The notes beneath the pieces were generated by a model. That model saw nothing but the letters and a program-made list of their open reading frames with translations. It ran no database searches and had not been told where the DNA came from. The position numbers and the translations under genes are program-made. 64,000 bases of DNA, taken from positions 1,408,001 through 1,472,000 of the forward strand of contig CBDFJR010000005.1 in assembly GCA_965248535.1 (NCBI GenBank), in the 5' to 3' direction. The DNA comes from Phormidesmis sp. Its GTDB lineage: Bacteria; Cyanobacteriota; Cyanobacteriia; Leptolyngbyales; Leptolyngbyaceae. This document shows, one piece after another, positions 2,127 through 9,033 of this stretch. The first letter of the stretch is position 1. The number at the start of each line of letters is the position of its first letter.

Positions 2127-3491
2127 ATGCCCCACGCTTACGTAATCGGACTCGGAACATCAGGCAATGCAGCGGCTCGATTACTCAAACGCAACGGGTG
2201 GCGGGTCACAGTCAGCGATCGGGGCACCTCTGACACACTCCAACAGCAAAAACAGCAACTCAACGCTGAAGGAATTCAAGTCAAATTAGGAGACAGCTTT
2301 GATCCAGCTTTGATAATGCCGAAGTTAATCGTAGTGAGTCCGGGTGTGCCGTGGGATATTCCTGCCCTAGTGAAAGCGAGAGAGATGGGGATTACTACGA
2401 TCGGAGAAATGGAATTAGCATGGCAAAATTTACAGTCTCGCCCGTGGATTGGGATCACCGGAACGAACGGTAAGACCACGACAACGGCCCTAATCGCTGC
2501 TATCTTTCAAACCGCCGGGTTGAACGCTCCCGCCTTTGGCAATATTGGCTACGCTGCCTCTGAAGCGGCGATGTTAGAACCTCAACCCGACTGGGCGATC
2601 GCCGAATTTAGCAGCTATCAGATCGAAGCCGCCCCGACCGTTGCCCCTCGCATCGGCGTTTGGACAACCTTCACCCCCGATCATCTCAGTCGTCACAAAA
2701 CCTTAGAAAACTACTTCAGCATCAAAGCCCACCTACTGCGTCAGTCTGAGCAGCAGATTTTTAACGGCGATGACCCCTATTTGAGAAATCTAGGGGTTAA
2801 CCAATCTGATCCGGTCTCTGCCAAAGCCTGCTGGACAAGTGTCAAGGGTCGAGCGCAGCTAGTGGGCAATCCTGAACTAGGTGCTTATATTGAAGACGGC
2901 TGGGCGATCGTGCAAAATCTCCCGATCGTCGAGGTCAACACCCTGCGAATGCCCGGATTTCACAACCAGCAAAACCTGCTGATGGCAGTTGCTGCCGCGC
3001 ATTTTGCTGGGATTGAAAAAGTCGCCATTGTGGAGGCGATCGCTAACTTCCCCGGCGTGCCCCATCGCTTAGAACATCTCTGCACCTGGCAAGGCATCGA
3101 CTTTATTAATGACAGCAAAGCCACCAACTATGATGCCGCAGAGGTCGGATTGGCGGCCGTGAAAAGTCCGGTGATTTTGATTGCGGGCGGCGAAGCCAAA
3201 CTGGGTGAAGATGCCGCCTGGCTGAAAGTGATTCAAGAAAAAGCGGCAGCCGTGTTGCTGATTGGCAGTGCGGCAGCAGCGTTTGCTCAACGATTAGATC
3301 AAGTCGGTTATGCCCATTATGAAATTGTGGAGACGATGGAACGGGCCGTGCAGCGATCGCTCGACCTTGCCCAACAGCAGTCTGCTCGTGTCGTTCTGTT
3401 ATCGCCTGCTTGCGCCAGTTTTGATCAATATCCAAACTTTGAGCAACGGGGCGATCACTTTCGTCAACTTTGTTTAGAATCGCTTACCTAA
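2127..3491 (+). CDS. murD: UDP-N-acetylmuramoyl-L-alanine--D-glutamate ligase
   Basis: [43 protein letters not shown]. Confidence 0.97.
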
Positions 3492-3543
3492 GCTGTGCGA
3501 CGATCTTCTGTTGTCCTTGAGTTGTAGAGTTCGATTGAGCAAC

Positions 3544-5277
3544 CTACCACCCCCAAAAGCCCTCACACTCATAGTAACCTTCTCGTTGCGTCCCTCTAGG
3601 GCACCACTGGGTTACAGGTCTAGGAGTCAAGTGCCGACCTCGACCATTCCAAAGGGCTGTGGTGCTGACGATTTTTAACCCCGCTTGCTTCGTAGCTTCT
3701 GCATTAGAGAAGTCGCCGATCGAGATCGTTGGCACAAAGTCTTTTCCCTTTTTATAGATCGTTGCTTGATAGCCCAGTTGTTGAGCTAGAGTCGCTTTGT
3801 CTTGAGCTGCCTGAAGAGTCGGATAGCTGTCTAAGATGATTAGCCAACCTCCGCTAGGACTTGGAGACGGGACTGGACTAGGAAGAGACGAGACTGGACT
3901 AGGATCGGTCTTTTGATGAGGCTGACTTGGTGGTTTCCCGGTCGGTGTAGACGATCGAGAGGCTGGCTGAGAAGGCACAGTAGACGAAGGAAGGGACGAC
4001 TTGGGGATGATCGCTGCCGTTGTTTTTGAAGTAGTTGACACGGCTGGAGTCGGAGACAGGTTTCGTCCTGGTAGCGACGAGACAGCCAGAAAAACACCGA
4101 TCGCACCTGCCCCTAACACGCCAGCTCCAACCAGAAACATCGGAATTTTGCCGTTACTAGATGGCACCTCGATCGGGACAGGAGACGAGCTTTCTGAAGA
4201 TATCTGAGGGAGTGAAGACATCCATTTTTCTTCGATCGCCGACACATCTTCGGTTCTCAGTGCCACGATCTCCTGAAATCTCCGCAACTCACTCTGTCGT
4301 TGAGAACTCAGTGGAAATTCTCGCTGAATGGCATCTGCAAACAGTTGTTCATAGCGTTGTAGATTTCGTTGATAATCCCGATAGGGGCGCAACACTTGAG
4401 CTCCGATCGCTTGGGTTTCCTCTACTGAAAGTCCTAGTTGTTCTCGCAGTGATGAGAGGGCACGATTGCCGATCGCTGAGATTTCGCCTTGACTTGAGAA
4501 GTGTTCGACTTCTTGGCGATAGCGGAGTTTAGGCTCTCCGATCGCCGCCTTCGCCAAATAAATTCTGAATCCTTCTTCAACAATGTAGATTTTGGGCTGC
4601 ATCGCGGGGGCGGTTTCTTGCACTTTTCGGTAAGCATAATCGTGGAGTTCTTCAACCGAGATCACGCCATCGCTATCGGCATCAGCGGCTCCTGTCTCAA
4701 TGCCTTCGACGATATAACGCGTGTAGACCGACAGATCAGCCCCCTGTTGCTCAAATGAATATTGGGTCGAAGTGGAAGACGTTAAGACAACGCGCCCCTC
4801 GCCGCCGAGTTGAGTTTGCACATTAACAGTGCCATCATCTTTGGCAGTCATGCCTTCCGCAAATGCCCCGCTAAAACAGCAGTCAAGAATGATCACCTGG
4901 CGTTTGCAGCGTGAATTGCTCATGATGTCTTGCACAAATCCCGCCGGAACTGCGGTAGCTTTGACCAACTCGCCTTTAGAATTTTTGCGCGTTAGACGAG
5001 TCGCGAAATAAAGCCGTCCGCGATCGTCCTTAACCCCATGACCTGAGAAAAACAAGACGGCTAAATCATCTTTGCTGCGATCGCTCAATAAGGTCTCGAT
5101 CGCTTCCTGCATCTGCAAAGGTTCGGGGTTGGGCAGCGTTTTCACCTCGTCAAAGTTGCCTAAGTCGGGATGCTGCAACACGCGCCGCATAGCTTCGATG
5201 TCTTTGAGCGCTCCGGGTAGAGGGCTTAACCCGGCTTGATAGTGGCTCACCCCGATCAGCAGTGCGATTTTTGCCAT
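3544..5277 (-). CDS. Caspase-family (peptidase C14) protease, EACC1-associated type, with helical region, one TM helix, Pro/Ser linker and C-terminal SPOR-like domain
   Basis: MAKIALLIGVS, FFSGHG (His), ILDCCFSG (Cys); TM IPMFLVGAGVLGAGAIGVFLAV; C-terminal GWLIILDSYPTLQAAQDKA...LGYQATIYK resembles SPOR (less certain). Confidence 0.85.
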   Translation of the reverse strand: MAKIALLIGVSHYQAGLSPLPGALKDIEAMRRVLQHPDLGNFDEVKTLPNPEPLQMQEAIETLLSDRSKDDLAVLFFSGHGVKDDRGRLYFATRLTRKNSKGELVKATAVPAGFVQDIMSNSRCKRQVIILDCCFSGAFAEGMTAKDDGTVNVQTQLGGEGRVVLTSSTSTQYSFEQQGADLSVYTRYIVEGIETGAADADSDGVISVEELHDYAYRKVQETAPAMQPKIYIVEEGFRIYLAKAAIGEPKLRYRQEVEHFSSQGEISAIGNRALSSLREQLGLSVEETQAIGAQVLRPYRDYQRNLQRYEQLFADAIQREFPLSSQRQSELRRFQEIVALRTEDVSAIEEKWMSSLPQISSESSSPVPIEVPSSNGKIPMFLVGAGVLGAGAIGVFLAVSSLPGRNLSPTPAVSTTSKTTAAIIPKSSLPSSTVPSQPASRSSTPTGKPPSQPHQKTDPSPVSSLPSPVPSPSPSGGWLIILDSYPTLQAAQDKATLAQQLGYQATIYKKGKDFVPTISIGDFSNAEATKQAGLKIVSTTALWNGRGRHLTPRPVTQWCPRGTQREGYYECEGFWGW

Positions 5278-5286
5278 TTGAGTGTC

Positions 5287-5661
5287 TCAAGAGGTGATAA
5301 AGTTTTGAGCGGCCGCGATCGCGGCTTCCAGTTCTTGTCGGCTGCTGGCTTTAACTTTAAGCTTTTTACCGTTTGCTTCGACTTCGAGTTCAATGACTTT
5401 GCTGCCTAAGCGATCGCCCAAAAATCCCATCAGTTTTTTGAAATTAGCGGGGCTGACTTCTGCCATTAATAACCCAGCTAACATTCCACCGACTGCTTTA
5501 TTGCCTTCAGGTGGATTGAGATCAGGAACCCGATCGCTCGTCACACCTTCTAACTCTCTGATTTGAGGTAAAAGCTTATCGACCTCGTGATCTCGCCCAT
5601 CCTTGTCCAGGTCAGGATCATTGAAGTTGATTGTGACTTTAATCTCAGATACATTCGTCAT
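5287..5661 (-). CDS. EACC1-like (effector-associated constant component) small protein
   Basis: 124 aa with PEGNKAVG, FLGDRLGSKVIELEVEANGKKLKV; lies 9 nt upstream of the caspase gene, the usual arrangement for this family. Confidence 0.7.
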   Translation of the reverse strand: MTNVSEIKVTINFNDPDLDKDGRDHEVDKLLPQIRELEGVTSDRVPDLNPPEGNKAVGGMLAGLLMAEVSPANFKKLMGFLGDRLGSKVIELEVEANGKKLKVKASSRQELEAAIAAAQNFITS

Positions 5662-5711
5662 ATCAATCTCTTTTTGGTTCGTGAATTAACAGATGGCTCA
5701 CCGTGCCTTCA

Positions 5712-5727
5712 CAGTTATATCAAGGTT
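5712..5727 (-). promoter_or_regulatory. Putative extended -10 promoter element (AACCTTGATATAACTG on the minus strand)
   Basis: TGnTATAAC about 50 nt upstream of the EACC1-like gene; near-identical copy at 7593-7607. Confidence 0.45.
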
Positions 5728-5770
5728 TCAGATTGTGCTGATGCGAGCAGGTGCAAACGATTCGCTCAGT

Positions 5771-6334
5771 TTAATACTTGAGCTGTGTTGAGTCTGAAGC
5801 GCACTGAAGTGTGCTGTCCTGAAACTTTGGGGGAGAAAGTGCAGCCGTTGAAGGGGCATTACCTTCACAAATAATCGTAAGCGTTGTGACCTCTTGACTG
5901 CCGCTAGAAGTGATGACGAATGCTCCACCGACATATCCCTTCAGCCCATCTATTTTAGGAGTCGCTGTCGAGACGGCATAACCTTTCATGCCCGAACCAT
6001 ACGCTTGAGTTGTGTACCTATAGTTTGCAGTTTCTGACTGAATGCCAACTCCTAACTCTCCAATGTTCGATGAAAACTTGTTTTTCTCAAGAAAGAAAGC
6101 TTGTTGAGATCGGTTCAATGAGCCAACGTAGGTTTTAGCCTCTGACTGTTTGGCTTGACTCGCTTGATTGAGAAAGGACGGAAGCACGATCCCGCTAACT
6201 AGCATGATTGAAAAGCCAAGGCAACCGATTGATCCCAGCACGATCGGCAGTCGAGGACGACTACGCGGAGGAATGGCTGTGGAGATGTTCTCTAAATTAG
6301 TCGTTAGAAGAATTGTGGGCAGAAAGAGAAGGGT
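5771..6334 (-). CDS. TM helix plus type IV pilin-like (Pilin_GH-type) domain; probably the frameshifted C-terminus of the 6297-7541 caspase
   Basis: LPSFLNQASQAKQSEAKTYVGSLNRSQQAFFLE pilin helix, C-terminal Cys pair; frame stays open to 6334 (TNLENISTAIPPRSRPRLPIVLG) and overlaps the caspase stop; no prepilin cleavage motif. Confidence 0.8.
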   Translation of the reverse strand, partial: TLLFLPTILLTTNLENISTAIPPRSRPRLPIVLGSIGCLGFSIMLVSGIVLPSFLNQASQAKQSEAKTYVGSLNRSQQAFFLEKNKFSSNIGELGVGIQSETANYRYTTQAYGSGMKGYAVSTATPKIDGLKGYVGGAFVITSSGSQEVTTLTIICEGNAPSTAALSPPKFQDSTLQCASDSTQLKY

Positions 6335-7541
6335 CTACTGAAGGGCTTGAAAGCGGTGCAACTTCTTTTTGCACAGGAACGCTTTCTTGACGAGGCTGAG
6401 AGGGAACTGATGAGGAAGGTACTGCGGTGGGTTGAGCGGGATGGGCTTCTAGAACTGGGGGTTCAATGGCTTCCTGACGGGGCGTATGCTTCGTTTCAAT
6501 CGAAGTAATATCTTCATGCCGCAGCCCCAAAATCTCTTGATAACGATGCAATTCATCGCGAGTGGCATCACTGAGCGGATACTCCTGCTGAACTGACTCA
6601 GCAAAAGCTTGTTCATAGCGCTGCAATTTTTTCTGATACTCTCGATAAGGTTTGAGAACCTCTTCCTCGATCGCAGTTGCAGTCTCAGAGGCAAGCCCCA
6701 AACTACCTCGTAAATCATCTAGAATTCTACGACCCAGCATCGAGATCTTCCCTTGACTGGCACGCCGTTCGACTTCTTTGCGATATGCCAGTTTCGGGTC
6801 GCCGATCGCAACTTTTGCTAGCCGAATTTTAAATCCTTCCTCGACCGCGTAGATTTTGGGTTTCATGGCGGGGGCGGTCTCTTGCACCTTTTTGCAGGCA
6901 TACTCGTGTAGCTCGTCGATCGAGATTACACCATTATTATCCAAGTCGGCTGCCCCTGTCTCCAGACCCTCCACGATGTATTGGGTGTAAACCGATAGCT
7001 CAGAGTCTTGCTGCTCAAAAGAATATTGAGTCGAAGTTGAAGAGGTGAGAACGGCGCGTCCTTCTCCCCCCAGTTGGGTTTGAATATCGACTACACCATC
7101 GTCTTTGGCAGTCATGCCTTCCACAAATGCTCCGCTAAAGCAACAGTCGAGTAGCACCACTTGTCGCTTACAGCGTGAATTGCTCATAATATCCTGAACG
7201 AATCCCGCAGGAACGGCAGTGGCTTTTACTAAGTCGCCTTTAGGATTTTTGCGCGTCACACGGGTTGCAAAGTAGAGCCGCCCACTGTCGTCTTTGACCC
7301 CATGACCAGAGAAAAAGAGTAATACCAAATCTTCTCTAGCCCGATCGGACAATAAGTTCTCGATCGCTTCTTGCATCGCAAAGGGTTCGGGATTGGAGAG
7401 CGTTCTCACTTCATCAAAGCTACCTATTTCGCGATTCTCTAGAACCCGTTGCATTGCTTCAATATCTTTGATAGCTCCTGGTAAAGGGGTGAGTCCTGCC
7501 GCATATTCGCTGACTCCAATTAGCAATGCAATCTTCGCCAT
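6297..7541 (-). CDS. Caspase-family protease paralog (N-terminal part of a probable caspase-TM-pilin fusion interrupted by a 1-nt frameshift)
   Basis: FFSGHG and LLDCCFSG dyad intact; clearly paralogous to 3544-5277; stops inside a Pro/Ser linker before any TM helix. Confidence 0.85.
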   Translation of the reverse strand: MAKIALLIGVSEYAAGLTPLPGAIKDIEAMQRVLENREIGSFDEVRTLSNPEPFAMQEAIENLLSDRAREDLVLLFFSGHGVKDDSGRLYFATRVTRKNPKGDLVKATAVPAGFVQDIMSNSRCKRQVVLLDCCFSGAFVEGMTAKDDGVVDIQTQLGGEGRAVLTSSTSTQYSFEQQDSELSVYTQYIVEGLETGAADLDNNGVISIDELHEYACKKVQETAPAMKPKIYAVEEGFKIRLAKVAIGDPKLAYRKEVERRASQGKISMLGRRILDDLRGSLGLASETATAIEEEVLKPYREYQKKLQRYEQAFAESVQQEYPLSDATRDELHRYQEILGLRHEDITSIETKHTPRQEAIEPPVLEAHPAQPTAVPSSSVPSQPRQESVPVQKEVAPLSSPSVDPSLSAHNSSND

Positions 7542-7592
7542 GATCTAATCTCTTATTTGAATGACTGCGGATCAATGACCTATCTGATGCCC

Positions 7593-7607
7593 CAGTTATA
7601 TCAGGTT
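7593..7607 (-). promoter_or_regulatory. Putative extended -10 promoter element (AACCTGATATAACTG on the minus strand)
   Basis: Same motif and same distance (about 50 nt) from the start codon as 5712-5727. Confidence 0.45.
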
Positions 7608-7671
7608 GAAAACTGCTTTTTCCCTGAGAAATTGTAAATCTTAAGAAGGTTTTTTACTTGATGGGATTCGC

Positions 7672-8841
7672 CTAAAACGTTGCTTGCTCCGACAAATGCC
7701 CCGCTTTCACTTCCAGAATTTGAGAAGCGTTGATCCACTGAGCATCAAAGGAGCCTAAATGAGTCGTCGTAATTAAGGTTTGAAACCGATCTTGAATGGC
7801 ATCTAGCAGTTGGTTTTGCCGACTCAGATCTAGTTCTGCTAATACGTCATCTAATAACAATAACGGCGGCTCACCAATCACATCTTCGATCAGTTTAAGC
7901 TCGGCTAGTTTGAGGGCGAGTACTAAAGTTCTCTGCTGTCCTTGAGAGCCATATTGACGAGCAGGCGTATTGTTAATCGTGAATTCGACTTCATCGCGAT
8001 GAGGCCCCACGATCGTCGTTCCTTGATGTCGCTCAACGACCGATCGCTGCTGAATTTTTTCTAAAAATGCTTTCTGCAACACTTCGGGATTGTCATCCAC
8101 TAGGTCTACATTGGGCGCATAGCGGATTTCTAACGCTTCGGTGCTGCCGCTAATCGCCTGATGCCACGATTGAGCGATCGGGACGAGACGCTGCAAAACT
8201 CTGGCACGACGACGAATCACGCGAGAACCCGCGATCGCCAGTTGAGCATCCCACAACGACAACTCTGATGGGTTCAAAGAGTCAAGCTCTGAGTCGGGAC
8301 TGCTAAATAAATTTTGACGGTTAAGATCTGATTTTTGAATGCCCTTTAAAAGAGCGTTGCGCTGCCGCAGAATTTGATTATATTGCTGAAGCACATAAGC
8401 ATAAATCGGCTCAAGCTGCACCAGCAGAGCATCAAGCCAATGGCGACGCTGTTCGGGGCCGCCTCTGACTAAATCCAGATCTAAGCTAGAAAATTGCACC
8501 ATATTCAACGTGCCGAGAAAGTCTAGCTGACGACGAAGATTTAGCCCATTTAAGCCAACGCTGCGCCGACCATTTTGGCGAAGGGTCATCGACAGATCGA
8601 CCTCGCCCATGTCCTTTTGCAGGTGCCCAGTGATTTGGGCGATCGCTTCGCCATCGAGAATCAAGTCACGATCGCGGGCCGTGCGATGCGATCGCAGCGA
8701 AGACATCAACTCCACCGCTTCGAGCAGGTTTGACTTGCCTTGGGCATTATTGCCGACTAAGATCGTTTTGGCTGCCGAAAATTCCACCGCTTGATCTCGG
8801 TAGTTGCGAAAGTTGCGGAGGTGCAGCGTCTTGAGATACAT
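7672..8841 (-). CDS. recF: DNA replication/repair protein RecF
   Basis: [43 protein letters not shown]. Confidence 0.97.
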
Positions 8842-9033
8842 AGCGATCGACGAGGGCTTCAGACTACCTACTATACGCCCTAGGGCAAAAGTGTTTGAAC
8901 TGCCTACCTAAAGTTATGGATCGCTTAATTAGCTTTTTGTAACTCTTATATCGTCTTGTGTGTTCTGGGTTTAGGTAGGGCGCGATTCAGTATGGTTGAG
9001 CAAAGACACTCTCTCGATCGGGCGTAAGGTTTC

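Follow-up and report, generated by a model that had tools for sequence, protein, structure and literature searches.

Within a 64,000-nucleotide stretch of a Phormidesmis sp. genome (contig CBDFJR010000005.1, positions 1,408,001 to 1,472,000; hereafter the window), we analysed a locus that consists of a small gene of the EACC1 family and two caspase genes, named here caspase 1 and caspase 2. The locus is probably a cell-suicide module of the EACC1-caspase type, of the conflict or abortive-infection kind, in which the proteases are built like receptors: each couples a caspase domain and a helical module to a single membrane helix and then to a domain that would face the cell envelope, SPOR-like in caspase 1 and pilin-like in caspase 2. 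Family membership, architecture, the SPOR-like fold, the turnover of C-terminal domains and purifying selection all come from the sequences analysed here; cleavage and pore formation are carried over, by analogy, from one homologous pair for which they have been demonstrated. We infer the topology of the proteases, the cleavage site, the sharing of EACC1 and the nature of the signals.

An earlier, sequence-only reading of this DNA had described two co-oriented caspase genes with a 124-residue gene between them, and we confirmed all four reading frames at the positions that it gave, every one of them on the minus strand (Table 1). In order of transcription these are caspase 2, a second open frame that overlaps the end of caspase 2, the 124-residue EACC1-family gene, and caspase 1, which starts 9 nt past the stop of the EACC1-family gene. 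Caspase 2 is upstream of EACC1, not downstream; the layout is a caspase without an EACC1 gene of its own, then EACC1, then a second caspase.

Both proteins match Pfam Peptidase_C14 (PF00656; E 8e-22 for caspase 1 and 1e-22 for caspase 2), and both exceed the cut-off of 140 bits for the NCBIfam model of the ‘caspase, EACC1-associated type’ (NF047832; 172.9 and 171.1 bits, respectively). The motifs FFSGHG and LDCCFSG are present in each, so that the catalytic dyads are intact, as had been claimed, and the catalytic His80 and Cys134 are kept in all 32 aligned relatives. What did not hold is the description of the N-terminal halves as near-identical: caspase 1 (577 residues) and the N-terminal part of caspase 2 (414 residues) are 69% identical across 378 residues, with about 70–73% identity in DNA, and synonymous divergence (dS) between them is 2.9. 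Bearing in mind that this value is near saturation, we regard the two genes as paralogues that stem from an old duplication. Their shared build agrees with the sequence-only reading: the helical module is common to both, to about residue 360, and Pro, Ser and Thr make up 63% of the linker at residues 400–475 of caspase 1. In each caspase a single stretch, and no more, is strongly hydrophobic (Kyte-Doolittle 19-residue maximum 2.29 and 2.16), and there are conserved Cys pairs in the outer domains of both.

The C-terminal domain of caspase 1 belongs to a small set of sequences: a search with its last 140 residues against 1.84 billion representatives yielded only 10 proteins at E<=0.001. Nine of these were scanned for SPOR (a 4104-residue protein, P0251, was left out); four scored at or over the Pfam cut-off of 21 bits for SPOR (PF05036), three were just under it, and two had no match. 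Two of the nine (P0252 and P0256) are fragments with this same caspase-helix-SPOR-like order of domains. When the family profile is compared with the PDB, its best match is the SPOR domain of CwlC (E 0.0034), and all 30 matches in the ESM Atlas are SPOR clusters (score 0.92). In the predicted structure of the SPOR-like fragment (mean predicted local distance difference test score, pLDDT, 71.8; core about 90), strands at 41–44, 67–73, 76–83 and 115–117 and helices at 51–63 and 89–102 follow the strand-helix-strand-strand-helix-strand order of the ribonucleoprotein (RNP)-like SPOR fold. Superposition of this model with VIA-align ranks an uncharacterised exported protein highest (Z 8.8), and places RlpA SPOR at Z 8.2 (root-mean-square deviation 2.2, 72 of 77 residues), CwlC at 7.8, DedD at 6.0, DamX at 5.3 and FtsN at 4.1. 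Thus relatives, PDB profile, Atlas and predicted fold together support the earlier assignment of a membrane helix followed by a SPOR-like domain, for which glycan binding is putative. The domain shares its predicted fold order with the SPOR domains of RlpA, CwlC, DedD, DamX and FtsN, and relatives of it pass the Pfam cut-off; it differs from them by an extra tail, in which W558, C559 and C571 are kept in 11 of 11 sequences, the second Cys standing about 12 residues after the Trp-Cys pair. The paired Cys would fit an oxidising, periplasmic location of the domain. The giant protein P0251 matches residues 53–88 of the SPOR-like fragment in 13 separate stretches, which suggests many SPOR-like repeats.

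The outer domain of caspase 2 is encoded in the second frame, in which Pilin_GH (PF16734) is matched at E 4e-33 (114.7 bits; cut-off 28.9) over profile positions 1–114 of 114; this bears out the prediction that copy 2, once its frame is repaired, continues into a membrane helix and a pilin-like domain. Intact caspase-Pilin_GH fusions occur among the relatives: P0001 (589 residues, 83% identical to the frame), P0002 (591 residues) and P0003 (897 residues). A metagenome scan for the contig on which P0001 and P0016 lie did not recover it. The domain has in common with Pilin_GH type IV pilins the globular head and the second half, and the second half only, of the pilin N-terminal helix, as is also the case in P0001 and P0002. 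It differs from them in that the prepilin leader and the Gly-1/Phe+1/Glu+5 signature are absent, whereas the Pilin_GH pilins encoded by this genome have both the leader and a start with Gly, Phe-Thr-Leu-Ile-Glu. Since the domain has neither leader nor signature, it cannot be a pilus subunit; judged by these motifs, it is an anchored pilin head, pilin-like rather than a pilin. We also considered that it might be a decoy of the host’s own pilin; this idea is not supported, in that the identity of the domain to pilins of other genera reaches 54%, as against 44% and 42% to two pilins from its own genome. In other cyanobacteria, the Pilin_GH head is found behind Ser/Thr kinases that have a membrane helix and behind a TIR domain (P0004, P0011, P0013); in the TIR-Pilin_GH fusion P0013, no hydrophobic helix is obvious. 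The domain seems to recur as a module in signalling and death proteins of cyanobacteria; a literature search on PF16734 and Pilin_GH returned only an unrelated plant paper.

The 124-residue protein has 1212 relatives at E<=0.001 out of 1243 candidates; those listed are 122–147 residues long and cyanobacterial where named. At E<=0.01, PF19953 (EACC1) is matched by 14 of the 41 members that were aligned, and no other family is matched by any of them; we conclude from these relatives that the protein belongs to a cyanobacterial branch of EACC1, as the sequence-only reading had suspected. One relative that is 68% identical to it (P0080) passes the Pfam EACC1 cut-off directly (25.0 bits versus 23.6). 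Asp47 is invariant in all 41 members; it lies in the motif D-R-V-x-D-x-N-P-P-E-G-N-K-A, just before a Gly-rich hydrophobic stretch in which Gly58, Leu61 and Gly63 are equally invariant (41/41), which describes a conserved hydrophobic segment with small residues. A low-confidence model shows a strand-helix-strand N-terminal part and an uncertain middle, followed by one helix, two strands and another helix. Nothing meaningful in the PDB matches the family profile (best E 0.43).

An analogy is drawn to EACC1-KrAvs12 of Ktedonobacter racemifer. In a recent preprint (Evans et al. 2025; bioRxiv 10.1101/2025.11.14.688446), the caspase of KrAvs12 cleaves EACC1, a latent pore-forming toxin; the cut is modelled at Asp49, the C-terminal fragment alone is toxic, and cleaved EACC1 permeabilises liposomes. 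There, too, an EACC1 pro-toxin is next to a caspase; EACC1 is inhibited by its N-terminal part and forms the pore with its C-terminal part, and the conserved Asp of the inter-domain motif has nearly the same position (Asp49, as against Asp47 in the window). In the pair that the preprint describes, EACC1 acts as the effector and not as an accessory partner in signalling. The difference is that the caspase is fused there to a cytoplasmic Avs/STAND sensor, which recognises a phage tail connector, whereas in the window the variable part of the protease follows the membrane helix, so that any signal would come from the envelope.

The caspase and helical module is the constant part of a large family with exchangeable C-termini, much as had been proposed: 3352 relatives score at E<=0.001 among 8000 scored candidates, and their C-terminal families include Pilin_GH, PF12849 (periplasmic-binding-type), GUN4, TPR, WD40, FGE-sulfatase and peptidase M4. 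Among the best 120 relatives there are 11 with Pilin_GH, 10 with PF12849, 6 with GUN4 and about 26 with TPR-type domains, besides single cases of others. Some of these C-terminal family names are what we take the domains to be; several are confirmed by source names and by a domain scan of the genus. The order EACC1-then-caspase is conserved in every set of loci inspected, which supports the reading as a module. Outside the window’s genome, 10 of 10 EACC1 genes in the genus are directly followed by a caspase, the C-termini of which are FGE-sulfatase (6), TPR (1), Clp_N (1) or none that was recognised (2). Among metagenome loci with at least 300 nt of downstream room, a caspase follows 24 of 30 EACC1 genes; among genome loci that start at the caspase start, EACC1 is just upstream in 12 of 19, one of which (L022) has a full caspase-Pilin_GH fusion.

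We envisage the following sequence of events, each step of which is conditional. EACC1 would be a latent pore former. Caspase 1 would cross the membrane once, with protease and helical module in the cytoplasm and the SPOR-like domain in the periplasm; caspase 2 would have the same build, with the Pilin_GH head outside. The cytoplasmic protease may become active upon a cue at the outer domain, perhaps through clustering; it would then cut EACC1 within D-R-V-x-D-x-N-P-P-E-G, most likely after the invariant Asp47 (alternatively after Arg44), and the freed C-terminal part, with its Gly-rich hydrophobic helix, would assemble a pore in the membrane and kill the cell. Both caspases probably act on the one EACC1 gene that lies between them. 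The outer domains might couple the module to wall damage, to pilus status or to a septal location. We also entertain a bolder version, on which we place little weight: the locus as a counterpart of the extrinsic death pathway, in which EACC1, as a single gasdermin-like pro-toxin, would be the common target of two ‘death receptors’ that differ in their periplasmic ectodomains. In this scheme the SPOR-like domain would read peptide-free glycan (at septa, or in a wall stripped by amidases or phage lysins), the pilin head would monitor the pilus machinery or phages that enter by way of it, and a conserved EF-hand-like loop would add calcium influx as a feed-forward trigger.

The loop in question lies inside the caspase domain (residues 199–210 of caspase 1) and has the canonical 12 residues, D-x-D-x-D-G-x-I-x-x-x-E. 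Across 32 aligned EACC1-type caspases, D199 and E210 are kept in all and D203 and G204 in 29. The main texts of Kaur et al. 2020 (PMC7159879) and of Evans et al. 2025 make no mention of calcium or of an EF-hand.

Several observations weigh against the main interpretation of the locus, as an EACC1-caspase module with receptor-like proteases. The adjoining genes are housekeeping ones (glyS, murD, recF) and do not form a defence island, and PADLOC gives a generic caspase match only. The 124-residue protein itself has no direct match in Pfam, NCBIfam or PADLOC, and its structure model is poor (pLDDT 53), not usable for a fold search. The direct Pfam SPOR match of caspase 1 is sub-threshold (15.6 bits versus a cut-off of 21), and Foldseek finds no match to the SPOR-like model at E<=0.001, its top match being CwlC at E 0.05. 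The positive-inside count of charges that flank the membrane helices is not decisive for topology. Caspase 2 has no upstream EACC1 gene of its own; among the metagenome loci an upstream caspase next to EACC1 is found at 2 of 19 with room for one, both in a single tandem array, and we therefore regard the layout of the window as unusual. Finally, copy 2 is broken as assembled: the caspase frame runs into a stop at 6297, and it is from 6334 onwards that the pilin frame is open.

That last point was pursued with X1 and X2, two public runs from the same organism and study that have contigs over this stretch; these may not derive from the very strain that was assembled, and contigs drop rare variants, which also counts on the unfavourable side. 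In both runs the contigs fork over 6267–6394 into two arms, and in each arm the depth is roughly half that of the flanks (7.7 and 7.0 versus 15 in one run; 56.6 and 56.6 versus about 110 in the other). Neither arm equals the window sequence. The first (allele A) is the window minus one base at about 6311, plus one substitution; the second has 11 substitutions and indels, for a net change of -4 bases relative to the window. When applied by script, both arms restore one unbroken frame, of 590 or 589 codons. At position 6352 the window has A and allele A reads G (in X1, G at 7.7 of a depth of 14.7); the window at this site looks like a consensus from mixed reads, a mosaic of the two alleles. Thus, of the frameshift described by the sequence-only reading, the break in the window stands, while neither of the X1/X2 alleles has it. 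Furthermore, comparing caspase 2 with its orthologue in a genome of the same genus (G003) gives a ratio of non-synonymous to synonymous substitution (dN/dS) of 0.078 in the protease module and of 0.26 in the pilin part, as compared with 0.053 for recF and 0.079 for murD, values that show long-term purifying selection on both halves of copy 2. We judge that the frame break is likely an assembly artefact at a polymorphic site, and that caspase 2 is probably intact in the organism. The alternative is that copy 2 is a true pseudogene, its break real in the strain, such that only EACC1 and caspase 1 work as a pair. We hold this to be rather unlikely: the break does stand in the assembled sequence, the intact housekeeping neighbours indicate an assembly that is not full of indels, and a third EACC1-caspase locus of the same genome, split over three frames, hints that such genes may decay here; against that, there are two alleles without the break, of which the window resembles a mosaic, and the constraint on both halves.

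Two further explanations concern what the module does. In one, the outer domains are addresses rather than sensors: the SPOR-like domain would take caspase 1 to septal, amidase-processed peptidoglycan between the cells of the filament, the pilin-like head would dock at the pilus machinery, and the module would serve developmental or damage-limiting death (sacrificial cells, or the sealing off of a dying neighbour) instead of phage defence. Among SPOR domains, the model aligns best with those of RlpA, CwlC, DedD and DamX, which are septum- or glycan-binding proteins. The host belongs to the order Leptolyngbyales, the locus lies among housekeeping genes next to murD, and EACC1 systems are strongly tied to multicellular bacteria (650 of 671 organisms; Table 1 of PMC7159879). 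Even so, the locus is absent or reduced in genomes of the same genus, a pattern that suits an accessory conflict system more than a core developmental system, and in the homologous pair that has been tested the trigger is a phage protein (10.1101/2025.11.14.688446); we consider the address model unlikely, although not far-fetched. In the other, put forward by Kaur et al. in PMC7159879, EACC1 sits in the membrane as the sensor, and self-cleavage of the caspase sets free its C-terminal domain, which is the effector. The conserved Gly-rich hydrophobic segment of EACC1 would suit a membrane sensor, but this segment is weak (maximum 1.21). Moreover, a SPOR-like or pilin-like domain past the membrane helix would be out of reach of a cytoplasmic protease and has no obvious killing activity, and in the homologous pair it is EACC1 itself that is the cleaved toxin (10.1101/2025.11.14.688446). 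For the window this model is very improbable.

By its distribution, the locus behaves as accessory DNA. In G003, the murD-recF site holds an intact caspase-pilin gene and, next to murD, a 26–31-residue relic of the caspase 1 tail that is interrupted by stop codons; the relic implies that the three-gene form is the older one, and that G003 lost EACC1 and caspase 1. This relic (L019, 8143–8220; G003:C42), which lies between murD and the caspase-pilin gene, is 50% identical over 26 residues. In G006, recF abuts murD and there is no caspase locus. A query with the SPOR-like tail found it in no other genus member.

In the window, the locus is flanked by murD (2127–3491, plus strand) and recF (8841–7672). 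There is no break in base composition across it, and an Rfam scan of 3000–9000 gave 0 matches at E<=0.1. A promoter and terminator scan found 5 candidates as against 4.0 and 4.2 in shuffled sequences, which is chance level, so the operon boundaries are unreadable from it.

Table 1. Positions, in window coordinates, of the features of the EACC1-caspase locus
Feature	Positions	Strand	Basis
Caspase 1, 577 residues: caspase domain, helical module, membrane helix, Pro/Ser linker, SPOR-like domain	3544..5277	-	Open reading frame; PF00656 E 8e-22; NF047832 172.9 bits, cut-off 140
Sole membrane helix of caspase 1, about residues 377-400	4078..4149	-	Only stretch with Kyte-Doolittle 19-residue mean >=1.6; maximum 2.29
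SPOR-like domain and conserved Trp-Cys ... Cys tail, residues 474-577 of caspase 1	3547..3858	-	Relatives, PDB profile, ESM Atlas, fold
EACC1-family gene, 124 residues, predicted latent pore-forming effector	5287..5661	-	1212 relatives; 14/41 aligned members match PF19953
Caspase 2, N-terminal part as assembled, 414 residues, stop at 6297-6299	6297..7541	-	Open reading frame; NF047832 171.1 bits
Caspase 2, C-terminal part, second frame, 187 residues stop to stop: linker end, membrane helix, Pilin_GH	5771..6334	-	Open frame; PF16734 E 4e-33
Membrane helix of caspase 2	about 6170-6250	-	In second frame
Pilin_GH domain of caspase 2	about 5798-6148	-	PF16734
Frame break (about 6297-6312) within polymorphic linker stretch of caspase 2; probable assembly artefact	6297..6364	-	Two alternative contigs per run over 6267-6394
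EF-hand-like loop in caspase domain of caspase 1, residues 199-210	4648..4683	-	Sub-threshold Pfam EF-hand_5
EF-hand-like loop, caspase 2 equivalent	6912-6947	-	Same loop as caspase 1 residues 199-210

Some additional features of the two genes and of their relatives were recorded. The linker alleles that precede the membrane helix of caspase 2 in X1 and X2 differ by 11 substitutions and several indels in 68 nt, with at least 0.7–1.4 kb identical on each side, and X1 and X2 disagree in the second allele at 6346. The two alleles could stem from two strains, from heterozygous chromosome copies or from an imported patch; origin from a diversity-generating retroelement (DGR) was dropped as an explanation, the differences including indels and changes at all four bases. 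The linker of caspase 1 contains a 21-nt tandem repeat in two copies (3864–3904), which is ordinary for Pro/Ser linkers. The helical module is itself a repeat unit (L-G-L ... P-Y-R-E-Y-Q ... P-L-S ...), of which P0003 has apparently about six copies and the window caspases one to two. The third EACC1 gene of the same genome (125 residues; G000:C5:634368-636780; L003, L066, L068) is followed by a caspase-FGE-sulfatase gene in three frames; intact versions of 653–697 residues exist at five loci of the genus, and the split copy is either a real pseudogene or a case of further assembly indels.

The sequence-only reading had put the locus forward as an uncharacterised system; in this it was mistaken, since Kaur, Burroughs, Iyer and Aravind 2020 (PMC7159879) had already described the EACC1-caspase pair as their System 4: an EACC1 gene on the 5′ side and, 3′ of it, a caspase gene for the C-terminal domain of which there are up to 50 alternatives. 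Membrane helices occur there in at least a third of these caspases, some of which have an extracellular binding domain. The window resembles System 4 in its small EACC1 gene directly 5′ of a gene with an N-terminal caspase, in a constant module with a variable C-terminus, in frequent membrane helices and in the enrichment in multicellular hosts. It differs in that the paper calls the system prevalent in actinobacteria, whereas here there is a large cyanobacterial branch, the EACC1 of which is often under the Pfam model, and in that a second caspase, without its own EACC1, sits upstream. The receptor-like design has also been proposed before, for membrane orthocaspases with extracellular domains that may act as receptor or initiator caspases (Bhattacharjee and Mishra 2020; PMC7475262): these likewise have a cytoplasmic catalytic domain, one membrane helix and an extracellular accessory domain that is thought to receive a death signal. 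PMC7475262 and a domain survey (PMC8283722) list WD40, CHASE2, ANF-receptor, Peripla_BP_6 and others, but draw no link from the caspases to EACC1.

As to the outer domains, ‘pilin’ has 0 occurrences in the main text of PMC7159879 and ‘SPOR’ appears there only inside other words; two text-form supplement files of that paper hold no architecture lists, so that its full list could include SPOR or pilin domains. Both words have 0 occurrences in the main texts of PMC7475262 and PMC8283722, and the survey, of 473 orthocaspases, lists neither domain; the text of Evans et al. 2025 was not searched for either word. What is new here is modest: two types of envelope-facing domain, and two caspases that flank one EACC1 gene. 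The locus adds to a family already known; it is not evidence of a new one.

EACC1-caspase pairs have been demonstrated, in one case, to be protease-gated pore toxins with a cytoplasmic phage sensor; in the window, the sensor part would lie outside the membrane. Here one and the same protease module is joined to either a SPOR-like or a pilin-like ectodomain, with just one toxin gene beside it, in a compact arrangement made by nature: if the ectodomains do gate the protease, it would offer a simple system in which to learn how a bacterial death switch reads the cell wall or the pilus. Were the bolder death-receptor scheme to be true, a cell of the filament could kill itself on envelope cues before an invader reaches its cytoplasm.

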